Notes: generated from the letters alone by a model not told the origin. DNA of 38,157 nucleotides from an uncultured Syntrophorhabdus sp. (GCA_964599175.1 CAZREE010000003.1:1-38157); one strand, 5' to 3'; positions 1,066 through 19,583 are shown, numbered from the stretch's first letter. A program made the numbers and translations.

Positions 1066-1845
1066 ATGTCGCCTTCAACACCGATCTACAAAATCTATGC
1101 GGTCAAATATGCGGGTCCCCTCATCAGTTCTGTTGCGATGGTTTTATGGAATACGGACTGGGAGAAGAAGATCGAGAGGAATTATTACCTCTGGGTTTTG
1201 CAGAGCGAGGAAGAGACCCTGATTGTGGACTGCGGCATCACCCCTGCGCTCGCAGAGGCCAGACAGATTCCGGGCTATGTCGATCCGACCGAGATGCTGG
1301 CCCGATTGGGCATCGAAGCATCCGAGGTGAAACGGGTGGTGATCACCCATGTCAATTTTGATCACATCAGCGGAATCGAACTCTTCCCCAAAGCCACCTT
1401 CTATCTTCAGGAGAAGGAATTCGACTTCTGGATCAAGGACCCAATCAGCCAAAAGCCCCCTTTCCTCAAGTTCTCCGATCCTGTGGGAAACCGCTATCTC
1501 GCCCGACTCGAAGGCACAGAGAGGTTGATCCTTGTCCGTGGAGACCGGGAGATTCTTCCGGGCATTGAACTTCTCCTGGCGCCGGGCCATTCTCCAGGCT
1601 TACAGGTCGTCGCCGTCAATACCGCCTGCGGCATAGCCGTGGTGGGTTCGGATTGCGCCCATCTTTTCAGAAATTATGAAGAGGAGATCCCGAGCTGTTT
1701 CATCATCGACCTGATTGCCTGGATGAAGACCTATGAAAAAATAAAATCGAAAGCCTCTTCTTTGGACCTCCTCTTTCCAGGACATGACCGGAAAATGTTG
1801 ACCGATTATCCGAAGGTGGCCGAGGACATCACGCGTCTTGTTTAA
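1066..1845 (+). CDS. MBL-fold metallo-hydrolase (lactonase-like)
   Basis: 259-aa ORF with MBL-like blocks LIVDCG, VITHVNFDHISG (variant of HxHxDH), APGHSPG, GSDCAH and FPGHD. Confidence 0.6.
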   Translation: MSPSTPIYKIYAVKYAGPLISSVAMVLWNTDWEKKIERNYYLWVLQSEEETLIVDCGITPALAEARQIPGYVDPTEMLARLGIEASEVKRVVITHVNFDHISGIELFPKATFYLQEKEFDFWIKDPISQKPPFLKFSDPVGNRYLARLEGTERLILVRGDREILPGIELLLAPGHSPGLQVVAVNTACGIAVVGSDCAHLFRNYEEEIPSCFIIDLIAWMKTYEKIKSKASSLDLLFPGHDRKMLTDYPKVAEDITRLV

Positions 1846-3800
1846 GGATTGGAGGGAATCTCAAACTCATAGAGAAAGGCGTGGGAGCCGAAATAGATCG
1901 TTCTGCCCGAAATGGCCATGCCCGAGGTGATTGACACAGGAGGTTTTGCCATTGGAAAAACCTCGCCTTTTTTAGGCTCAATGAAAAAGATCATCTCCTG
2001 TGTAAGCCCATACAGCAATCCATCCGGTCCCATCTGAAGGGAGACTTCAACCGGCATTTTCAGCCCGAGATCAAAAACCTTTTTCACTTCTCGCTTCTCC
2101 GGATCGAATATAAAGGCCTTTTCATTATCCGTAATCCCATAGAGAATGCCATCCGGAGCTGCGGCAAGGGAGAGAATGGTTCTCGCCCCGGGAACAGGCA
2201 CGATCTCGAAGAGTTTCTTTTCCTCCCTGGGATCCCAGAGGATGAGTCTGGCCTCCTTTTCGACGGCCCGTGTTCCGCCTCCGCCCCGGACCGAACCTCC
2301 TCCGGCGATGAGATCGAGTTTTTCAAGATAGGCCAGGGAGGCGATGCTCTGATTCTGAATGATATGCCGGTAGACCCTCTTCTCCTTCTTCTTCAGATCA
2401 TAGACGCTGATCGCGCCGCCATGAAGGCCATAATCAGGATAAGTTCCGATGAAGAGCTTTCCGTGAGGTCCTGCAATCATTGCCCTTGGCCGGTCCTGCC
2501 CTTCCCCCAGGGGACCTAAGTCTCGTGGATTGGCCTCTTCTCCGTCCCCGAATCTTAAGGGCCTTTTAGGGTCGAAGACCGAAAGCCGTGACCCCGGATA
2601 AGAGCAGAGGTAGAGCCTCCCCTCATAAGATCCCATCGAGTAGATCTGGCCGCCGGCATAGGCGGCTCTCCCGAGGTTGGTGAGAGATTCGTTTGCGGGA
2701 TCATAAACAAAAAGCCTCAGGGGAAGCATACTGCTTCCGTAGATCCTTTGATCCGGGCCCGAACTGACCATAAAGAGAAAAGCGCCGGAAGCCTCGTGCC
2801 GGAGGGAAATCTCCCTCTCCTCCTTCGTGGCCGGGTTCTGGATTTTAAGCAGATGGGAGTCCACAACATGAAACTGCCGACCGTCCGGAAGGCCCCTTTT
2901 AGGAAATGGGATTTGGGATTCTGAAACCTCCAGGAGATTCTTTCCGTCTTCGATGCGAAACCATTTTGCCGATGGAAGCCTGGCATAGACCTTTCCATCT
3001 GTTCCTCCGGTCAGGCTGAGCCAGCCCGATCTTCGCTCCTCAGGGGGGATGAGGGACGTCTTGGTCTCTTTCACAGGGTCAAAGACAACGATATCCGTCT
3101 TTTCAAACCGGATTGCGCAATAGATCAGGCCATCGCTTCCTGCTGTCGGGTAACAGTAGAACTGCCTGGCATCCATCCGGCCGTAGTCCTTCGTCTCGCC
3201 CGTCTTCGGATCGAAGGAGAAGAGTTTGGCAGAGGGAAAGGTCCCGCCCCAGATCTTTCCATCCGGCGCTGTGGTCAACGAGCAGATGAAGGACTCGCTC
3301 TCTCCTGCGGGCCGTCCCAGATCTTCCCATCTCTCGGTCTTTGGATCGAAGCGCAGGAGATGGGCACGATAGTAGCTTCCGAGATAGATCCGGTTCTCCT
3401 GATCGATGGTAAATCCCCAGGAGCCCATCTCATCGGGAAGGGGGCCATTGAATTGACGGATCTCGCCGGTGTCGGGATGAACAGCCAGCAGGGAGACCGA
3501 TTCTCTGTAACGGCCAAGGACAATATAGAGGGTATCCATTCTGCAGGTTCTTCCAGGTCCGACATAACTGCCCCAGGAGATCCCTTCTTTGACCGGCGCG
3601 CCAAGATTACGAAACGCAAAAGAGAGTTCGGAGGAGAAGTTTAAAAAGGTAAAAATGAGAAGCAATCGAAAAAATATGAATGAACCTGTGGATCTTTTCC
3701 CCTTTCTATCGGAGGCGGTGTCGCAGGCGCACGATAGGTTGCGATGCCATCTCTCGAGGGAAGGAATGAGGGGAAGCTGTAAGGAAGAGCGCCTGCACAC
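1842..3800 (-). CDS. secreted or anchored beta-propeller repeat protein (Vgb/NHL-like blades)
   Basis: 652-aa ORF with a GTG start 3 nt after the upstream gene's stop. A hydrophobic segment FIFFRLLLIFTFLNF..SFA is followed by at least 8 blade motifs (APDGKIWGGT, GSDGLIYCA, GTDGKVYAR, GPDQRIYGSS, GPHGKLFIGT, APDGILYGIT, GPDGLLYGLT, SGRTIYFGS). Exact start uncertain. Confidence 0.6.
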   Translation of the reverse strand: MCRRSSLQLPLIPSLERWHRNLSCACDTASDRKGKRSTGSFIFFRLLLIFTFLNFSSELSFAFRNLGAPVKEGISWGSYVGPGRTCRMDTLYIVLGRYRESVSLLAVHPDTGEIRQFNGPLPDEMGSWGFTIDQENRIYLGSYYRAHLLRFDPKTERWEDLGRPAGESESFICSLTTAPDGKIWGGTFPSAKLFSFDPKTGETKDYGRMDARQFYCYPTAGSDGLIYCAIRFEKTDIVVFDPVKETKTSLIPPEERRSGWLSLTGGTDGKVYARLPSAKWFRIEDGKNLLEVSESQIPFPKRGLPDGRQFHVVDSHLLKIQNPATKEEREISLRHEASGAFLFMVSSGPDQRIYGSSMLPLRLFVYDPANESLTNLGRAAYAGGQIYSMGSYEGRLYLCSYPGSRLSVFDPKRPLRFGDGEEANPRDLGPLGEGQDRPRAMIAGPHGKLFIGTYPDYGLHGGAISVYDLKKKEKRVYRHIIQNQSIASLAYLEKLDLIAGGGSVRGGGGTRAVEKEARLILWDPREEKKLFEIVPVPGARTILSLAAAPDGILYGITDNEKAFIFDPEKREVKKVFDLGLKMPVEVSLQMGPDGLLYGLTQEMIFFIEPKKGEVFPMAKPPVSITSGMAISGRTIYFGSHAFLYEFEIPSNP

Positions 3801-7051: not shown

Positions 7052-7933
7052 ATGAATGCATCCCAGAAAATGGAAAGTGACCAACTCATACCCAAGAAAG
7101 AACTAAAGTGTGTCTGGATGACTGCGGGTTTCATCTCTTATAAACTCTGCAAATATGACCTGCAGTGTGAGAAATGTCCTCTGGATTGGGAACTCAGGAA
7201 CCTCTCTACGTCTCCCTCTTTTGGTTCAACAGTCTCTACGGAAGCGAAAAATCGGAGACCGAGAGAGACGGGGCCGACTCCTCTATTGGAAAAGGAAGGA
7301 GAAGAGGAAGGGGAGACAGGGGGAAGGGAGACCCCTTCCCATTTAAACATAAAAGGATCCCTTTTTTACCATCCTGGGCATACCTGGATAAAGGTGGAAA
7401 AGGCTGATGAAGTCCGGGTGGGTATTGACAATTTCTTGGGAGGATTGATAGGGAAAGTCAACGCCGTTGTGCTTCCTCTATCTGGAAGGCGGTGTATGCG
7501 GGGAGAGCCCCTCTGTTCAATTATCCAAGAAGAGGGGATTGTGGATATTATTTCCCCGGTCAGCGGATCCATTCTTTCGGTCAACAAGAAATTGAAAGAC
7601 CATCCCGAGTTGATCAGTCAGGACCCCCTGGGAGCAGGGTTTTTGCTGACCCTGAAACCCAAAGATTTTCAGCGAGACCAAAAAAACTTATTCTTTGGAG
7701 AAGAGGCCTTTTCCTGGTGCCGCAAAGAATGGGAACGTTTTAAAGAGGCTGCCATTTCAGAGCTTCACCATGGGCAAGAGCGGCTTGGTATGACCATGCA
7801 GGACGGAGGGATAAAACTGAGAGATATAAAAAAATTAATTGAACCGGAGCGATATATTCGGCTGATTAACGCCTTTCTGCGAAAAGAAGTAGAAAAATCA
7901 TACCCTTTTAAGCCCAAAAGTGATTTTAACTAA
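7052..7933 (+). CDS. GcvH-fold protein, paralog 3, with a Cys-rich N-terminal module instead of a TM anchor
   Basis: ATG7052 with GAGGTGG about 9 nt upstream (GTG7040 also possible). N-terminus has CVWMTAGFISYKLCKYDLQCEKCP, then an acidic linker. GcvH-like blocks are FYHPGHTWIKVE...VRVGIDNF and SPVSGSILSVNKKLKDHPELISQDPLGAGFLLTLKP. No Lys at the lipoyl position. Confidence 0.65.
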   Translation: MNASQKMESDQLIPKKELKCVWMTAGFISYKLCKYDLQCEKCPLDWELRNLSTSPSFGSTVSTEAKNRRPRETGPTPLLEKEGEEEGETGGRETPSHLNIKGSLFYHPGHTWIKVEKADEVRVGIDNFLGGLIGKVNAVVLPLSGRRCMRGEPLCSIIQEEGIVDIISPVSGSILSVNKKLKDHPELISQDPLGAGFLLTLKPKDFQRDQKNLFFGEEAFSWCRKEWERFKEAAISELHHGQERLGMTMQDGGIKLRDIKKLIEPERYIRLINAFLRKEVEKSYPFKPKSDFN

Positions 7934-11217: not shown

Positions 11218-11234
11218 AGTTGAATGGAGCCTTT

Positions 11235-12725
11235 ATGGCCAACGAACTCGTTATCAATGTGACGCCTCAGGAGACAAGAGTCGCTCTTCTCGAAGATCGA
11301 GTCCTCGCAGAGCTCCACATCGAACGGACCCGGGACAGGGGGATCATCGGAAATATCTATAAGGGGAAGGTCGTCAAGGTCTTGCCGGGAATGCAGGCCG
11401 CCTTTGTGGATATCGGGCTGGAAAAGGCCGCCTTCCTCTATGTCGCCGATGTCTATGGAAGGATGGAGGAGTATGAGGAGATGGGTTTTTTCGGTATGGA
11501 GACGGCCAACTATTTCAATCCTCCGTCACAGATCCAGGACCTCCTCTTTGAGGGCCAGGAGGTGCTGGTTCAGGTCTCCAAAGAACCCATCGGAACGAAA
11601 GGCACCCGGATCACCTCCCACATCACTTTTCCAGGCCGTTATCTCGTCTTCATGCCCACCGTGGATCACATAGGGGTCTCGAGGAGAATCCGGGATGAGA
11701 AGGAACGCAAGCGATTGAGGGAAATCGCTCAGTCGATCAAGCCTCCCTCGGGCGGCATCATCGTCCGGACGGCCAGCGAAGGTGCGGAACCCGATGAGAT
11801 CCAAAGTGATATGGAGTTTCTTCGTCAACTCTGGAGCAATATCCAGAGGAAGAAGGAGAATAGTTCTGTTCCCTCCCTGATCCACAGCGATCTGACCTTG
11901 ATTCTCCGAATGATTCGAGACCTCCTCTCCCCTCAGATCAACCGGATCATCATCGATTCGAAAGAAGAATATGAGAACATCGTTTCCTTCATCAACACCT
12001 ACATGGCCAAGCAGAAATATGAGATTCTCCTTTATGAGGAGAAGGGACCCATCTTTGACGCCTATGGCATCGAAATGGAGATCGACAAGATTCTTGGAAG
12101 GAAGGTCTGGCTCAAATCAGGAGGCTATATCGTCATCGATGTCAGCGAGGCCATGGTGTCCATCGATGTGAATACCGGCCGATATGTCGGTAAAAGGAAT
12201 CTGGCTGATACGATCCTGAAGACGAACCTTGAGGCGGCTAAGGAGATCGCCTACCAGTTGAGGGTGCGCAATATCGGAGGGATCATCATCATCGATTTCA
12301 TCGACATGGAGCGGGAGGGCGATAAGGAGAAGGTCTATCAAGCCCTGGAGGAGGCTATCAAGAAGGACCGACAGAAGACCAATATCTTCAAGATCTCAGA
12401 ATTAGGGCTGGTAGAGATGACCCGTAAGCGGACGCGCGAGAACATTTCAAGGGTCCTCGGAGAACCGTGCCCGTACTGTGAAGGGTCGGGTCATGTCAAG
12501 TCGAAGGTTACGGTCTGTTACGATATCTTCCGTGAAATCGAAAGAACAACCTCTGAGCTTGGAGGCCACAACATCATGGTCGAGGCGCACCCGGATGTGG
12601 CAGACCTCCTCTATGAAGAGGAAAGGGCCAGGGTGGAGGAGTTGGAGAGGAAGCTGAAGAAGAAGGTCGTAATCAAGGCCAAGTCCGGCTTTCACCAGGA
12701 ACAATTCAACATCATCGAAGTTTGA
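11235..12725 (+). CDS. rng: Rne/Rng family ribonuclease (RNase G)
   Basis: S1 domain GNIYKGKVVKVLPGMQAAFVDIG, catalytic core blocks SIDVNTG and GGIIIIDFIDM, and Zn-link CPYCEGSG. ATG11235 is preferred over the TTG11220 start, which lies inside the repeat. Confidence 0.85.
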   Translation: MANELVINVTPQETRVALLEDRVLAELHIERTRDRGIIGNIYKGKVVKVLPGMQAAFVDIGLEKAAFLYVADVYGRMEEYEEMGFFGMETANYFNPPSQIQDLLFEGQEVLVQVSKEPIGTKGTRITSHITFPGRYLVFMPTVDHIGVSRRIRDEKERKRLREIAQSIKPPSGGIIVRTASEGAEPDEIQSDMEFLRQLWSNIQRKKENSSVPSLIHSDLTLILRMIRDLLSPQINRIIIDSKEEYENIVSFINTYMAKQKYEILLYEEKGPIFDAYGIEMEIDKILGRKVWLKSGGYIVIDVSEAMVSIDVNTGRYVGKRNLADTILKTNLEAAKEIAYQLRVRNIGGIIIIDFIDMEREGDKEKVYQALEEAIKKDRQKTNIFKISELGLVEMTRKRTRENISRVLGEPCPYCEGSGHVKSKVTVCYDIFREIERTTSELGGHNIMVEAHPDVADLLYEEERARVEELERKLKKKVVIKAKSGFHQEQFNIIEV

Positions 12726-12754
12726 GGCCTATTCAAAAAGAGTAAATAAATTAT

Positions 12755-12798
12755 TTTGTTGACAAATTGAACTTAATTTATTATTTTATATCAACAAA
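12755..12798 (+). promoter_or_regulatory. candidate promoter/operator of the HTH-ImmA gene
   Basis: TTGACA at 12759-12764 with a TATTTT-like -10 17 nt downstream. An 8-bp inverted repeat tttgttga (12755-12762) / tcaacaaa (12791-12798) brackets it. Confidence 0.3.
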
Positions 12799-12836
12799 TG
12801 TTTAAAATCATAACATATTTTCCCAGCCCTAAATAA

Positions 12837-14027
12837 ATGGACACCTTAATAGGCAAAAAACTTAAAGAATTACGGGAAGTTAACGGATATACTCAGGAAG
12901 AAATCTTCCGTATCACTGGAATTAACCGAAGTAAACTTAGCCAGGTTGAAAATGGGAAGATGAGGATATCCAATGAAGAGCTTTACAGGATATCCAGGCT
13001 TCTTGGCCAACCCCTCGAATACTTTTTTGAAGAGGAAGAAAAACCTGCCGGCAACGTTCTCCTGTTTAGGGCAAAGGGTTCTCTTGATCAAGAAGACTTG
13101 GAGCTCGTGAAGCATTGCCGGGAGATAGGAATAAACTACACTGAACTTGAGGAATTAATATCCGAAGAAAACATCCACCCGGACTTTCGCACCTATTCAT
13201 ATCCATCCAATGTCCCTTTTTCTAATATAGCCAAAACAGTTGCCCGAAAGGAACGTCAATCTCTAAAATTGGGTCCAAGTGATCCCGTGCCGCTTAGATC
13301 GATTCTTCAGGAGCAAGGGATATTGGTACTTGAAATCAGTTTCAAATCAGACACACTGGATGGGTTTTTCTTTATCCATGATAAACGACCTGTGATCATT
13401 GCAAATGCCCATAACAAAAACCCATTTTCAAGGAATTTTGTCATTGCTCATGAATTTGCACATGTGCTTCTGGATAGCAGTACTCTTTCACGCTTTTGCA
13501 ATTCGATTGAGAAATCCGAAGAGGTTGTTGAGAAACGTGCGAATTTCTTTTCGAACGAATTTTTATTGCCCGAAGAAGCCCTCGAAATATATTTCAGTGA
13601 ATGTGGATATACAAAAGGGAAATCGAAAATCCAGAAGTATGATCTTTACTACCTGATCGATCATTTTCAATTAAGTAGAGAAATCGTTCTCAATCGCCTG
13701 TTCTTTACCGGATGGATCTCCGAGGACGAAAGGGGTAAGTTCCTGGAAATCGATGGGATTGCCAAGGATATGGAACGAATGGGGTTTTCGAATGAATATA
13801 CCCGATATTACATAGACCGGAAAGAAGACGAAACGGTCTCTGAATATCCCATCTTTAACATGCTAACCGAGCGATATCGGTTCCTGGCCAAGACCGCATA
13901 CACGACATCTAAGATCACTTTTGGAAAGCTCAGCGAATATTTATTTCTCCCCAAAGACCAGATTGAAATCCTCTTCGGAATTGGGAAGAAAGAGCCAACC
14001 GTGGAGGAAGTTCTTGGGTTGTCTTAA
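12837..14027 (+). CDS. XRE-family HTH fused to ImmA/IrrE (M78, COG2856-type) zinc metallopeptidase
   Basis: N-terminal HTH LKELREVNGYTQEEIFRITGINRSKLSQVENGK. HExxH motif VIAHEFAHVLLD followed by ANFFSNEFLLPEEAL, typical of ImmA/IrrE. Confidence 0.8.
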   Translation: MDTLIGKKLKELREVNGYTQEEIFRITGINRSKLSQVENGKMRISNEELYRISRLLGQPLEYFFEEEEKPAGNVLLFRAKGSLDQEDLELVKHCREIGINYTELEELISEENIHPDFRTYSYPSNVPFSNIAKTVARKERQSLKLGPSDPVPLRSILQEQGILVLEISFKSDTLDGFFFIHDKRPVIIANAHNKNPFSRNFVIAHEFAHVLLDSSTLSRFCNSIEKSEEVVEKRANFFSNEFLLPEEALEIYFSECGYTKGKSKIQKYDLYYLIDHFQLSREIVLNRLFFTGWISEDERGKFLEIDGIAKDMERMGFSNEYTRYYIDRKEDETVSEYPIFNMLTERYRFLAKTAYTTSKITFGKLSEYLFLPKDQIEILFGIGKKEPTVEEVLGLS

Positions 14028-14589
14028 TGTAATCATTGATTCAGATATTATCTTCCTCCTTGTCTCCATTCAAAAACATCACTATTTCAATCTTATTAAA
14101 ACTGCTCTCAAATGGCAGATTATTATCTCCCAGGAAATCGATGGAGAGATCGAGGATCCGGTTTCTTCTTCGGTGAAAGAGAAATTGGTAAAAGAAGGTG
14201 TCTGGGAATATTTCTCTCCAGCCGATCTCCAGCAAGAGAAAGCAATCATGCGAAAATATAATGACCTCCGAAAAATCATACACAAAGGAGAAGCCAGTTG
14301 TTACGCCATTGCCTATTGTGCGGGTTTTTCGGTGTTATCTCACGATCATGAAGCAAACCGTCTGCTCCCCTTGGAGATAAGGGAAAAAGTCAAATGGTAT
14401 TCTTTTTATGAGATGCTTTATCTTTTGAACAGAGAGAAGGCAATCTCGGAACAAGAAGCAGAGGAGTGTATAAAATCATTAGGCCAGATTCCAACTTTCA
14501 CACTTCCGGTAGCAATTCGGCAGGGAGGATTCTCCGAAATTAAAGGGATTTTTAACAAGAAATATTCCCCCCGAAATATTACCGAGTAA
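14014..14589 (+). CDS. PIN-like nuclease-fold protein (possibly DUF4411-type), putative toxin partner of the HTH-ImmA gene
   Basis: The frame overlaps the end of the previous gene. TTG14014 lies 6 nt after GGAGG. N-terminus is VIIDSDIIF (PIN strand-1 Asp). Later acidic positions are QEIDGEIED and GEASCYAIAY...VLSHDHEA (PIN-like helix plus Asp). Start uncertain. Confidence 0.55.
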   Translation: MGCLNVIIDSDIIFLLVSIQKHHYFNLIKTALKWQIIISQEIDGEIEDPVSSSVKEKLVKEGVWEYFSPADLQQEKAIMRKYNDLRKIIHKGEASCYAIAYCAGFSVLSHDHEANRLLPLEIREKVKWYSFYEMLYLLNREKAISEQEAEECIKSLGQIPTFTLPVAIRQGGFSEIKGIFNKKYSPRNITE

Positions 14590-14733
14590 AGCGGCGCGTG
14601 TTTCAGCGGTTCAACTCCTATCAACCACGTCCTCTCTTCTTTAAAAGACGAACCTTTCCATTGCTCCCCTCTGCAAATTGCAGACTATTTACTGATCACT
14701 GGCCTTTTATCACTAACCACCTTTCTTAAAAAA

Positions 14734-14762
14734 TTGCCATAAACCCAAATTTTTGGTATAAA
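14734..14762 (+). promoter_or_regulatory. sigma70-like promoter
   Basis: TTGCCA (14734-14739), 17-nt spacer, TATAAA (14757-14762). Confidence 0.45.
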
Positions 14763-14863
14763 GGAGTCGCTCGCCGGGTTAGAACGGATCCGAGAAACTC
14801 AAGGTTGGGATTGAAAACAAAGCTTGTAAGGACACGGGATATGATTCTGGAATAGTAGCCATT

Positions 14864-15271
14864 GTGAAAAAGGCCGGGATTTCGTACCCATGTGCGGTGC
14901 TCTCAAAAGTGCGCACTGTGAGTGGCACTGAAGATCACCTGCCGATGCTCGATTTTCGCTGTTCGATATCAGGTGTAAATCTTATCTCTCTCCAGCGGGT
15001 TGCCATGCGACCCCTTGATTGCCCTTGGGTGATCATTGAGTCAGAACAGTCATACCATTTGCTTGGGGCGTCATTGATAAGTGATAGAGAATTGACGAAA
15101 TTTTTCGGAAGAGCAATCCTGCTTGGTCCGCTTGTGGATAGGAACTACGTCGCCCATCAGCTCATAAACGGAAATGCGGCACTCCGCGTCGTAAATGCAC
15201 CCAGCGGGACTGGATTGAAGACCCGAATGACGACCTTCCCACTTGACACGTGGGAGAATTCGATTCAGTAA
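14864..15271 (+). CDS. hypothetical protein (orphan, no recognisable domain)
   Basis: 135-aa GTG-start ORF about 100 nt downstream of the 14734 promoter. Its composition is more protein-like than the overlapping minus-strand ORF 15071-15358. Confidence 0.3.
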   Translation: MKKAGISYPCAVLSKVRTVSGTEDHLPMLDFRCSISGVNLISLQRVAMRPLDCPWVIIESEQSYHLLGASLISDRELTKFFGRAILLGPLVDRNYVAHQLINGNAALRVVNAPSGTGLKTRMTTFPLDTWENSIQ

Positions 15272-15350
15272 ATAGTTTTCAGAAGAGTGAGCTTTCCAAG
15301 ATATCCTTTGGGCTGGTTGAGTCACAACAGAAATTTTATAGGAGCATAAG

Positions 15351-15596
15351 ATGGTCAAACGTACACCGCTGGTATGTCAACAGTTGGAAAACATTTCACG
15401 AGAAGCCTTAGGAAAATATCAGGATATCATCCGGCAGTATGTTCGACGGAGGCATGGAGTCTACGCCCTTTATCGGCGAGGGAAAATCCACTATGTCGGC
15501 TTGGCCAGCAACCTTCGATCTCGGCTCGCACGTTATCTTAGAGACCGGCATCAGAACTCATGGGACCGGTTCAGTGTTTACCTGGCTGCAGGTTGA
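15351..15596 (+). CDS. GIY-YIG nuclease-like protein, apparently C-terminally truncated
   Basis: TAGGAG RBS. GVYALYRRGKIHYVGLASNLRSRLARYL matches the GIY...YIG...R motifs. The ORF stops about 45 aa after GIY, before the expected catalytic Glu region. Confidence 0.45.
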   Translation: MVKRTPLVCQQLENISREALGKYQDIIRQYVRRRHGVYALYRRGKIHYVGLASNLRSRLARYLRDRHQNSWDRFSVYLAAG

Positions 15597-15687
15597 CAGA
15601 ATAACTTCATTTCTTCCGTTATACTGTGTTAAAATGAAAAAATATGGACGTGTATGAATAAGTCATAAGATTTTGAAGGGTGAAATC

Positions 15688-16014
15688 ATGACAAAAAAAC
15701 AGATTAACGAAGCTGTCCAAGAATTGAAGTTGAAACTCCGAACGCTGTTCGGAGAAGACATCGAGTTGAAGTTATTCGGTTCTGCGGTGCGAGGCGACTA
15801 CAGGAAGCATTCGGATATTGATGTTCTGGTTTTGCTGCCGCGAAGGGTCAATAATGCTATAGAGGAGAAGGTTTTCGATGCAGCTTACGACATCGAACTA
15901 AGACACGGTGTCATCTTCGGGATCATTGTTTATGCAAGAGAATTCTGGCGCTCGGAGGTGGCAGGGAGTATGCCCCTTTATCAGAATATCGAGAGAGAAG
16001 GCGTCGCCGTATGA
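15688..16014 (+). CDS. minimal nucleotidyltransferase (MNT/MntA-type antitoxin)
   Basis: LFGSAVRGDYRKHSDIDVLVLL matches GSxxRG...DxD of the pol-beta superfamily. It overlaps the next gene by ATGA. Confidence 0.8.
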   Translation: MTKKQINEAVQELKLKLRTLFGEDIELKLFGSAVRGDYRKHSDIDVLVLLPRRVNNAIEEKVFDAAYDIELRHGVIFGIIVYAREFWRSEVAGSMPLYQNIEREGVAV

Positions 16015-16409
16015 AAGAGGAGTTGATTCGTTACAGGCAGAGAAAGGCGCGGGAAACCTTAGAGGATGCTGACTTGCTCTTTCATTCAGGCAGATTGTTT
16101 TCAACATTGAACCGCATCTATTATGCCCTGTTCTATGAGGTTGTGGCACTTTTTTTGACCGCAGACCTTTCCTCGGCCAAACATACGGGTGTCCGTGCCC
16201 TGTTCAATGAGCATTTCGTTAAGTCAGGAAAGGTTCCTGTGGAGTTAGGCCGATTTTACTCCAGAATATATGACTTTCGACAGAAGGGCGATTATGGGGA
16301 TTTTGTAGAATTTGAGAGAGAAAAGGTGAAAGAGTGGCTTGACCAAGCCTCTATGTTCCTGGACGAAATGGATAAGATAATCAAAAAGGAAACGAAAGCA
16401 TATCAATAA
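16011..16409 (+). CDS. HEPN domain protein (HepT-type toxin partner of MNT)
   Basis: 132 aa, helical, translationally coupled to the MNT gene. HEPN-like blocks are AKHTGVRALFNEHFV and DFRQKGDY. Confidence 0.7.
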   Translation: MKEELIRYRQRKARETLEDADLLFHSGRLFSTLNRIYYALFYEVVALFLTADLSSAKHTGVRALFNEHFVKSGKVPVELGRFYSRIYDFRQKGDYGDFVEFEREKVKEWLDQASMFLDEMDKIIKKETKAYQ

Positions 16410-16568
16410 CAATATCCTTCCGATGGCAGGGAACGTTCTTAAGTTATTTAAGAAACTTTAATGCCCATCTCTTTCTATGGCCCTTATATGCTTTCTGGGA
16501 ATCGTAATCGAAGCCATTCCGAAAGGGTTTTTGCCAAGTGTGGTCATAAAACTGAAATTCCAGGAAAT

Positions 16569-16597
16569 TTGACAAATATCATAAAATCATTTAATAT
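16569..16597 (+). promoter_or_regulatory. sigma70-like promoter of the rplU operon
   Basis: TTGACA (16569-16574), 17-nt spacer, TAATAT (16592-16597), about 28 nt upstream of the rplU ATG (GGAGGA RBS). Confidence 0.55.
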
Positions 16598-16625
16598 TTT
16601 TCGATAATAATTTCGGAGGATTTCA

Positions 16626-16940
16626 ATGTTTGCCGTATTGAAAACAGGAGGAAAAGAGTATCGAGTCTCCACAGGAGATGTGATCCGAGTGGAGAAACTG
16701 GAAGGGAACGTGGGAGACCAGGTTACCCTGAAGGATGTTTTAATGGTCTCAAAAGAAGGGCAGGTCCAGGTAGGCACTCCCACCTTAAGCAATGCCGTCA
16801 TCACGGGTGAGATCGTGCGAGAGACGAAGGGTAAGAAGGTTCTTACCTATAAGATGAAAAAACGTAAGAATTACCGGCGGATGAAAGGGCATCGTCAGAC
16901 CTACACCTATCTGAAGGTGAATGAAATTTCAATAAGTTAA
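16626..16940 (+). CDS. rplU: 50S ribosomal protein L21
   Basis: MFAVLKTGGKEYRVSTGDVIRVEKL is a canonical L21 N-terminus. 104 aa. Confidence 0.95.
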   Translation: MFAVLKTGGKEYRVSTGDVIRVEKLEGNVGDQVTLKDVLMVSKEGQVQVGTPTLSNAVITGEIVRETKGKKVLTYKMKKRKNYRRMKGHRQTYTYLKVNEISIS

Positions 16941-16944
16941 TTAA

Positions 16945-17125
16945 GGGAATAACCAAATCCCCTGCCTACCGGTCCCGGTCCCGCAATATTAATAGACCGA
17001 AGGCGGGGCAGGCAGGCAAGCACCAATAACCCAATAATAACTAATGACTCAATGATCCACATTTATCTACTGAAATTTGGTTATTGGTGATTATTTGGAT
17101 CTTGGAATTTGGTTATTGGGATTTT
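16945..17125. repeat. family-1 composite palindromic repeat, copy 2 (GC core plus full CCAAT/ATTGG palindrome)
   Basis: Core 16961-17016 matches 11081-11136. It is followed by aagcaccaataacccaataataac ... aaatttggttattggtgattatttgg ... ggaatttggttattggg. Confidence 0.8.
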
Positions 17126-17145
17126 TGATTTTTAAGGAGGTTGTT

Positions 17146-19583
<2,438 letters not shown>

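Follow-up and report, generated by a model that had tools for sequence, protein, structure and literature searches.

An AT-rich islet of putative toxin-antitoxin and defence cassettes between rng and rplU in an uncultured Syntrophorhabdus

For E. coli and P. aeruginosa, defence hotspots have been described for which no mode of mobilisation was identifiable (PMC10121019). ImmA-HTH antitoxins were reported to pair with diverse toxins, PIN-like domains included, and some of these pairs were validated as the anti-phage system RosmerTA (PMC10440598). Class II HEPN/MNT modules, in turn, were defined by neighbouring PF01909 and PF05168 genes, a GSX10DXD motif, the absence of RX4HXY and a conserved tyrosine (PMC7641770). 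The present analysis concerns a stretch of 38,157 nucleotides (hereafter the window) from an uncultured Syntrophorhabdus sp. (GCA_964599175.1 CAZREE010000003.1:1-38157), which is contig C3 of a metagenome-assembled genome (MAG) of 1.84 Mb that is 75% complete and split into 207 contigs. Within the window, positions 12726 to 16568 form an islet of six open reading frames (ORFs), all on the same strand, between rng (RNase G) and rplU (ribosomal protein L21). The rng-rplU spacer is very probably an integrase-free recombination hotspot, at which small toxin-antitoxin/defence cassettes were gained, swapped and eroded within the family. A preliminary description, generated by a model from the sequence alone, had already proposed a small accretion hotspot for mobile stress or defence modules inside a housekeeping cluster, a proposal supported by the empty sites and the different cargo found in relatives. 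To our knowledge an rng-rplU hotspot has not been described, no literature search having been made for it.

The two core genes were located in 68 genomes of the class, all genomes compared being MAGs, and gaps were counted where both genes reside on one contig. In two sister families the rng-rplU gap measures 106-576 bp in all cases (12/12), and in the window's own family the two genes are separated by 51-340 bp in 16 of the 24 cases with a common contig, namely in the congener G009 and 15 others. Adjacency is thus the common state, as had been assumed, and G009, with a spacer of 333-336 bp, represents the empty site. Enlarged gaps of 0.9-16.6 kb were found in the other 8 of the 24 cases (G000 3.9 kb, G004 3.1, G024 8.5, G044 16.6, G067 7.6, G068 1.45, G064 0.94 and G049 0.89), whereby the five larger ones hold toxin-antitoxin/defence cargo that differs between genomes. 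G004 carries the same HTH-ImmA/PIN pair as the window, followed by Phd/YefM-ParE; G024 carries BrxL, two PINs and a zeta-like kinase; G067 carries YhcG, DUF5615/DUF433 and a STAND-like ATPase; and in G044 a zeta/YhcG fusion, SNF2, AAA_15, DUF1156, an MNT-HEPN pair unrelated to that of the window and DUF499 were identified, with RelE-like and AbrB-like ORFs recognised by eye only, as Pfam gave no match. Comparable cargo adjoins one of the flanks in further genomes. In G010 the pair follows rng up to the contig end, and a second contig, rng being on the other, holds an SMC-like ATPase, DUF6361, a PLD-like protein, a helicase and M78 + HTH directly upstream of rplU. Directly downstream of rng, G057 possesses ORF6N, DUF433/DUF5615, Fic and a type I restriction-modification (R-M) system with a GIY-YIG+RAMA gene, rplU being located on another contig, and upstream of rplU, G003 possesses a VapBC-like pair (assigned by eye, not by profile search) and then a small membrane-protein gene. 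At locus L095 (GCA_020724025.1) the pair is followed by hsdM. The rng protein itself is 90-93% identical to that of most congeners (89% and 86% in two), and in the rng tree the empty-site G009 falls into a well-supported clade (99/98) together with G004 and G010, both of which carry the pair, with G000 and L095 outside, a placement which points to loss or repeated gain of the pair, i.e., to turnover. Rearrangement is evident in G001, G002, G005 and G011, where different housekeeping genes adjoin rng and rplU.

The composition of the islet was found to be foreign, its AT-richness having been noticed in the preliminary description. Its GC content is 42.5% as compared to a genome mean of 49.3% (sd 2.0, 3.8-kb windows), and only 0.09% of the genome's 3.8-kb windows are equally AT-rich. 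The first gene pair deviates most, with a GC content at third codon positions (GC3) of 0.41-0.44 versus 0.61-0.69 in the upstream radical-SAM and rng genes. Taken with the empty G009 and the other cargo elsewhere, close relatives do not uniformly carry the same genes in native composition. Homology to relatives stops at the rng stop (plus about 20 nt) and restarts at 16567, and breakpoints were mapped at 14627, 14845/6, 15584, ~15651, 16458/61 and 16567. As the longest non-coding gap among the six ORFs is 274 nt and none of the ORFs is large enough, an integrase or transposase cannot hide in the islet, in agreement with the preliminary description. No tRNA or tmRNA was found in the window, no Rfam family matched at E<=1 in 12500-17200, and no paralogues of the six islet proteins were found in the window's own genome. 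A search for direct repeats, which had been proposed as a check, revealed none convincing at the islet boundaries and none above the background of chance two-copy families; one 19-nt pair of 84% identity (12803-12821 and 16582-16600) was judged to be chance because it is one of many two-copy families of this kind and is located in promoter DNA that is AT-rich. A reading without acquisition, in which the AT-rich DNA would be native or would stem from faulty assembly of a fragmented MAG, is most improbable. The 207 contigs and the completeness of 75% would be in line with such a reading, as would a pair-to-rng junction common to three other genomes at flank-like divergence, but the left half of the islet is reproduced in independent assemblies (G004, G010, L095), every remnant has matching genes elsewhere that were assembled independently, the islet is at the 0.09th percentile of GC content, and the site is empty in G009 and 15 other genomes of the family.

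Table 1. Features of the islet and its core-gene flanks, in positions of the whole window.
Feature	Position	Strand	Evidence and remarks
rng (RNase G), left core flank	11220..12725	+	Pfam RNase_E_G 1.5e-109
HTH-ImmA/PIN-like two-gene module	12738..14589	+	own promoter TTGACA-17-TATTTT, 12759-12787
HTH_XRE + Peptidase_M78 gene, 396 aa	12837-14027	+	Pfam 1e-19 and 1.8e-12; HTH_19
Predicted PIN-fold gene, 191 aa	14014-14589	+	14-nt overlap with HTH-M78 gene
Module 3' trailer	14590..14690	+	hairpin TCTGCAAATTGCAGA at 14670-14684, terminator-like
Conserved promoter-leader cassette	14691..14845	+	GATCACTG-type repeats 14691-14721; promoter TTGCCA-17-TATAAA 14734-14762; degenerate leader to 14845
5'-truncated PF24387 'AEP-like' remnant (C-terminal ~55%)	14846..15271	+	PF24387 1e-23
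GIY-YIG + RAMA gene, 5' fragment, 78/229 codons	15340..15584	+	ORF 15351-15596, tail in unrelated sequence; GIY-YIG weak 0.0027
MNT/HEPN cassette, class II	15651..16409	+	PF01909 5e-12, PF05168 1e-18
MNT gene	15688-16014	+	ATG start; in-frame TTG at 15673; PF01909
HEPN gene	16011-16409	+	PF05168; ATGA overlap with MNT
30-nt hairpin element (TTCTTAA-5-TTAAGAA)	16429..16458	+	20 nt past HEPN stop
Small membrane-protein gene, frameshifted 3' remnant	16461..16556 (96 nt)	+	compared with G003 gene
Native rplU promoter and 5' untranslated region, islet right boundary	16567..16625	+	TTGACA-17-TAATAT 16569-16597
rplU (L21), right core flank	16626..16940	+	Pfam Ribosomal_L21p 1.2e-36

The left part of the islet is made up by the two-gene module that had been described as an HTH-ImmA/PIN-like pair, an assignment upheld by the Pfam matches of its first protein to HTH_XRE and Peptidase_M78 and by the PIN fold predicted for the second with AlphaFold2 and Foldseek. 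The M78/IrrE peptidase domain possesses a HEFAH motif at residue 205, and the protein matches the PADLOC model RmrA (RosmerTA) at 4.7e-29 over about two thirds of the profile, involving the first ~250 of its 396 residues; weaker PADLOC matches were obtained to capP (2.4e-12) and capH (3e-11). The PIN-like gene starts with the TTG at 14014, five bases past a GGAGGA (14003-14008). The AlphaFold2 model of its product has a pLDDT of 91.9, and the top 50 Foldseek matches in the PDB are nearly all PIN-domain structures (VapC, Nob1, FitB, the PIN domain of Utp23 and others), with probabilities of 0.98-1.00 and a TMt of 0.5-0.64. Residues D9, D11, E43, E45, E93 and D111 are conserved to at least 90% in the alignment of the family and, by their sequence position, are putative PIN-type active-site residues. 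The family is narrow, as the profile search widened to 56 proteins only, none of them annotated. With the same limits (start 12738/12750, end 14589) the module occurs elsewhere at 83-85% nucleotide identity in four other contexts, i.e., adjoining rng in L095, as part of a SIR2/AbiE/Schlafen-like island (L092/L093), beside a methylase/NmeDI/GmrSD cluster (L090) and near PilZ and small ORFs (L081), and the 14-nt gene overlap is kept in L081, L083, L090, L092 and L095. The pair may therefore be taken as RosmerTA-like in its working, not as a demonstrated member of RosmerTA. Most likely, the HTH-M78 protein would repress its own promoter and restrain the PIN-like RNase until a trigger activates or removes the HTH-M78 protein.

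Downstream of the module the trailer is homologous to G004 until 14627 and to L095 through 14701. Beyond 14627, the homology to L095 comprises the hairpin, the GATCACTG-type repeats, the promoter and the leader, ending at 14845, and in L095 hsdM starts within ~20 nt of the same leader. The spacer of this promoter is a near-palindrome. An 88% copy of the promoter-leader resides on contig C80 of the window's own genome, G000 (7069-7141), where a second small decayed defence locus was observed (L032:1153-1476 and 1700-2215, minus strand), with a 107-aa fragment possessing a PLD-like N-terminus behind the motif and an adjoining ORF that is AbiEii-like by eye. Family-wide, the motif follows the consensus aaaaaTTGCYATAAAAnnAAATTTTTGGTATAAA, often together with the common leader GGTCAACTTCCGGGGGTGATTGAAAC... 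(window 14726-14845; loci L097-L140). It was found in 48 copies in 22 of 55 family genomes, some of them in tandem 0.8-1.8 kb apart (786-1835 bp), and nearly always a defence or toxin-antitoxin gene follows at a distance of 20-330 nt. Among the ORFs downstream of it are DrmD-like helicases (2.9e-99), AbiEi, HicA, RadC, DUF5615, HsdR and PLD-like N-termini, and the dozens of operons headed by it (including DrmD, AbiEi, HicA/B, RadC, HsdR/HsdM, PLD-helicases) are unrelated. As for the leader RNA, RNAalifold returned no consensus pairs in 16 copies. At its end the leader is similar to the 3' handle of the type I-C CRISPR repeat found in the family (GTGGATTGAAAC), a likeness which may indicate a link to Cas proteins. 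As a candidate, a CRISPR link of the leader was followed by counting ATTGAAAC-type arrays and was rejected: they are present in 5 of the 22 genomes with the motif versus 5 of the 33 without it, and therefore motif and arrays do not co-occur. No CRISPR array was found in the window's own assembly. Among the relatives, CRISPR arrays were observed in G009:C147, G018:C147, G021:C65, G054:C225 and G003:C27, comprising type I-C-like arrays with the repeat GTCGCNCCCCGCGCGGGNGCGTGGATTGAAAC and, in G003, a long array with 80 overlapping triplet matches and the 37-nt repeat GTTAGAGGACGGGTTCCATTAAAACAAGGATTGAAAC.

The position of the motif bears on another explanation for the pair, according to which the HTH-ImmA protein is mainly a stress-sensing regulator of the CapH/CapP or ImmR/ImmA type that acts on the neighbouring variable defence gene via the downstream palindromic promoter, the PIN-like protein being an accessory and not a neutralised toxin. 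The matches to capP and capH would be expected from such a regulator, the near-palindromic promoter spacer fits an operator, and in three independent contexts (window, L095, L092/L093) the motif is located 145-222 nt past the PIN stop, where it heads another defence gene in each context (the PF24387 fragment, hsdM and an SLFN/AlbA_2 ATPase). However, the RmrA models score far better than capP and capH, G004 carries the pair without a copy of the motif, and G009, G006, G012 and G003 possess several motif copies and no close homologue of the pair, as judged in a one-per-species genome collection of which these four are part. The tight overlap with the PIN gene in every context moreover fits a toxin-antitoxin operon, and the regulator explanation is regarded as unlikely. 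For the element as such (motif and leader GGTCAACTTCCGGGGGTGATTGAAAC, with the 30-nt hairpin from the right end of the islet), it was tentatively considered, at low confidence, that it marks a common defence regulon under one repressor or provides homology 'handles' for integrase-free cassette swapping; as a recurrent promoter element it may coordinate or shuffle defence genes.

Next to the promoter-leader the debris of earlier cargo is found. Since the homology to the L095 leader extends to 14845 and half a PF24387 gene begins at 14846, where the DNA homology to L052 starts, the 'orphan ORF with its own promoter' of the preliminary description is a chimeric junction: ORF and promoter are both present, the ORF being a gene fragment. 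The annotated ORF (14864-15271) begins at a fortuitous GTG. Members of PF24387 are mostly 220-260 aa in length, the gene of origin being one of roughly 245 aa, and match via their residues ~110-240; of the 257-aa protein P0051 only residues 108-244 align, at 14849-15259, its N-terminal half being unmatched upstream. The fragment hence encodes the C-terminal 135-137 residues only, instead of the about 230-260 aa of a full-length protein. A microhomology deletion inside the AEP-like gene, suspected from TTCTGGAA-like strings, was dropped because the sequence upstream of 14846 is homologous to the hsdM leader of L095. The PF24387 family as such comprises 724 representatives at E<=0.001, mostly of 220-260 aa with the domain C-terminal (P0051-P0199; L051, L052, L053); one member is fused to a nucleotidyltransferase, and its neighbours include TIR, CAP12-PCTIR and TPR-S/MAP3K_TRAF_bd, on account of which this uncharacterised family looks defence-associated. 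The second remnant is the GIY-YIG gene, rightly called truncated before. Its homology to seven full or partial copies ends at 15583/15584 in six of them; the most complete copies encode 229-248 aa, the one tested possessing GIY-YIG and RAMA domains, and the fragment is without the Glu and Asn half of the GIY-YIG domain. In several relatives GIY-YIG+RAMA genes directly follow hsdS, including in the G057 island downstream of rng. Judged by these homologies, both remnants would fit an earlier, larger restriction-type island at the same site.

The GIY-YIG gene is followed by the MNT/HEPN cassette, which at 75-88% nucleotide identity recurs with its part 15651-16396 at other loci in G048, G010, G051 and G004, adjoining truA in G010 and G004 and located elsewhere in G048 and G051; from this recurrence it follows that MNT/HEPN moves as a unit. 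Beside truA in G004:C153 (L163:471-812) HEPN is lost and MNT alone abuts truA, another sign of fast cassette decay. The GSX10DXD motif of the MNT protein is GSAVRGDYRKHSDID (residues 36-50), and its score against the NCBIfam model MntA_antitoxin (26.2) is below the cutoff of 60. The HEPN protein matches PF05168 only, RX4HXY being absent with RQKGDY instead. The pair noticed in the preliminary description is hence confirmed by PF01909 and PF05168, and by its features it is a class II module and not type VII HepT/MntA, whereby its toxin-antitoxin nature is putative. Past the HEPN stop, the 30-nt hairpin element has a counterpart of 97% identity in G003 (L164:982-1011), which is located upstream of rplU, 12 nt past the stop of VapC. 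The element contains a perfect 7-bp inverted repeat, TTCTTAA-GTTAT-TTAAGAA, found after the stops of unrelated cassettes (HEPN here, VapC in G003), and two further copies were observed in G012:C75 (L097:1590-1616 and 2156-2182), after the promoter motif. Its possible roles are those of a terminator or of a site marking the cassette end. The hairpin is followed by a third remnant, missed by the preliminary description, which aligns at 76% identity and with two gaps of 2 nt to the final 100 nt of a 136-aa gene located between VapBC and rplU in G003, where this parent gene follows the same hairpin. Finally, the rplU promoter at the right boundary was located as described before, but it is not 'fresh', as homology restarts at its -35 box and it is conserved in G004, G003 and the empty-site genome G009, and is therefore ancestral.

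Bracketing elements of this kind raise the question of a decayed cassette array under dedicated site-specific exchange (integron- or CALIN-like), with the promoter motif as 5' handle and the 30-nt hairpin as 3' handle, in place of general homologous recombination. All ORFs are co-oriented, the cassettes measure 0.4-1.9 kb, the motif brackets cassettes in tandem in relatives, with two copies 786-1835 bp apart, and one and the same hairpin follows VapC in G003 and HEPN in the window. This mode of exchange is nevertheless quite improbable, as there is neither an integrase in the islet nor an ORF large enough to encode one, as inspection of the hairpin region (around 16410-16470), by eye only, revealed no RYYYAAC/GTTRRRY core sites, and as the breakpoints at 14846 and 15584 are inside genes and not at shared elements. 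Furthermore, the motif heads operons up to the size of a DISARM-like cluster, unlike integron cassettes.

For the hotspot as proposed at the outset, three layers may be distinguished. The first would be the older HTH-ImmA/PIN-fold module beside rng, common to at least three congeners. The second would be debris of earlier cargo, in which the promoter-leader, in a sister genome the driver of a type I R-M operon, became fused to half a PF24387 gene, next to the 5'-terminal third of a GIY-YIG+RAMA gene such as those located after hsdS in relatives. The third would be the class II MNT/HEPN cassette, which would have cut off the GIY-YIG gene and ends with the cassette-end hairpin, then the membrane-protein stub abutting the ancestral rplU promoter. 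Transfer would have occurred by homologous recombination via the conserved flanks or short shared elements, and the intact cassettes would act as toxins and antitoxins, possibly with an anti-phage function. Several points weigh against this reading. The genome is a 75%-complete MAG, and in several congeners rng and rplU are on separate contigs or rearranged, such that occupancy counts are incomplete. The gaps of G049, G064 and G068 hold one conserved 252-281-aa gene only, which is not obviously defence-related. The divergence of the HTH-ImmA/PIN pair (85% nucleotide identity) is similar to that of the housekeeping flanks, and the pair may accordingly be inherited vertically within the subclade and not be currently mobile. 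The 191-aa PIN-like protein has no match in Pfam, NCBIfam or PADLOC, neither to RmrT nor to a PIN profile (PADLOC at E<=0.01, Pfam PIN models at E<=1). Lastly, class II HEPN proteins are without demonstrated RNase activity or toxicity (PMC7641770). As a side observation, the 252-281-aa protein possesses a CxxC motif (MNRDRLKKLA.DERFIAGIYNYCDRWCERCPQT...) and has no Pfam match (L086:425-1183, L087:110-955, L088:89-889), and it was also found in the 16.6-kb island of G044 (L084:15060-15818).

The islet does not overturn current ideas. It provides a clean, base-resolved case of small toxin-antitoxin/defence cassettes that pile up and decay with no integrase, set in an uncultured anaerobic lineage and directly before a ribosomal-protein operon. 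It further defines a compact and so far unannotated protein of predicted PIN fold as the partner of an HTH-ImmA protein, and supplies a class II MNT/HEPN pair of bacterial origin. As compared to RosmerTA and other pairs from ImmA zones, the first protein likewise combines an N-terminal HTH with an M78/ImmA peptidase of intact HExxH and shares a two-gene operon with a putative toxin of variable type; for this antitoxin node, PIN-like partners have been reported (PMC10440598). Unlike in RosmerTA, the partner in the window matches no RmrT or Pfam PIN model, the RmrA alignment is partial, and a toxin or defence role is putative here. With VapC-type PIN toxins the partner shares the predicted fold (TM-score ~0.6 on target) and has conserved acidic residues (D9, D11, E43/E45, E93, D111) at PIN-like positions of its sequence, but it has 191 aa with ~50 extra C-terminal helical residues and <18% identity to solved PINs, and it is accompanied by an HTH-peptidase and not by VapB. 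With GIY-YIG+RAMA proteins encoded after hsdS in type I R-M operons of relatives, the GIY-YIG fragment has 71-89% identity over their initial 78-81 residues; one third of the gene is kept, the catalytic half and the RAMA domain being missing. The MNT/HEPN pair agrees with class II modules in its PF01909 and PF05168 domains, the GSX10DXD, a downstream HEPN gene that is translationally coupled and the conserved Tyr (RQKGDY) (PMC7641770). With class I type VII HepT/MntA it has the GSX10DXD of MNT in common; unlike there, its HEPN protein has no RX4HXY and no PF01934 match, and the MntA score stays below cutoff. As for the locus as a whole, it differs from E. coli hotspot #37 and the P. aeruginosa hotspots by its lineage of uncultured Syntrophorhabdus-like MAGs, by rng and rplU as flanks, and by an islet that is very small, half decayed and abuts the promoter of a ribosomal-protein operon. 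Like them, it is located between core genes, is empty in some relatives and holds variable defence and toxin-antitoxin cargo, such hotspots often having no detectable mobile element (PMC10121019). By its empty site, its variable cargo and its composition, the islet is a member of this known class of core-gene-flanked defence/toxin-antitoxin hotspots.

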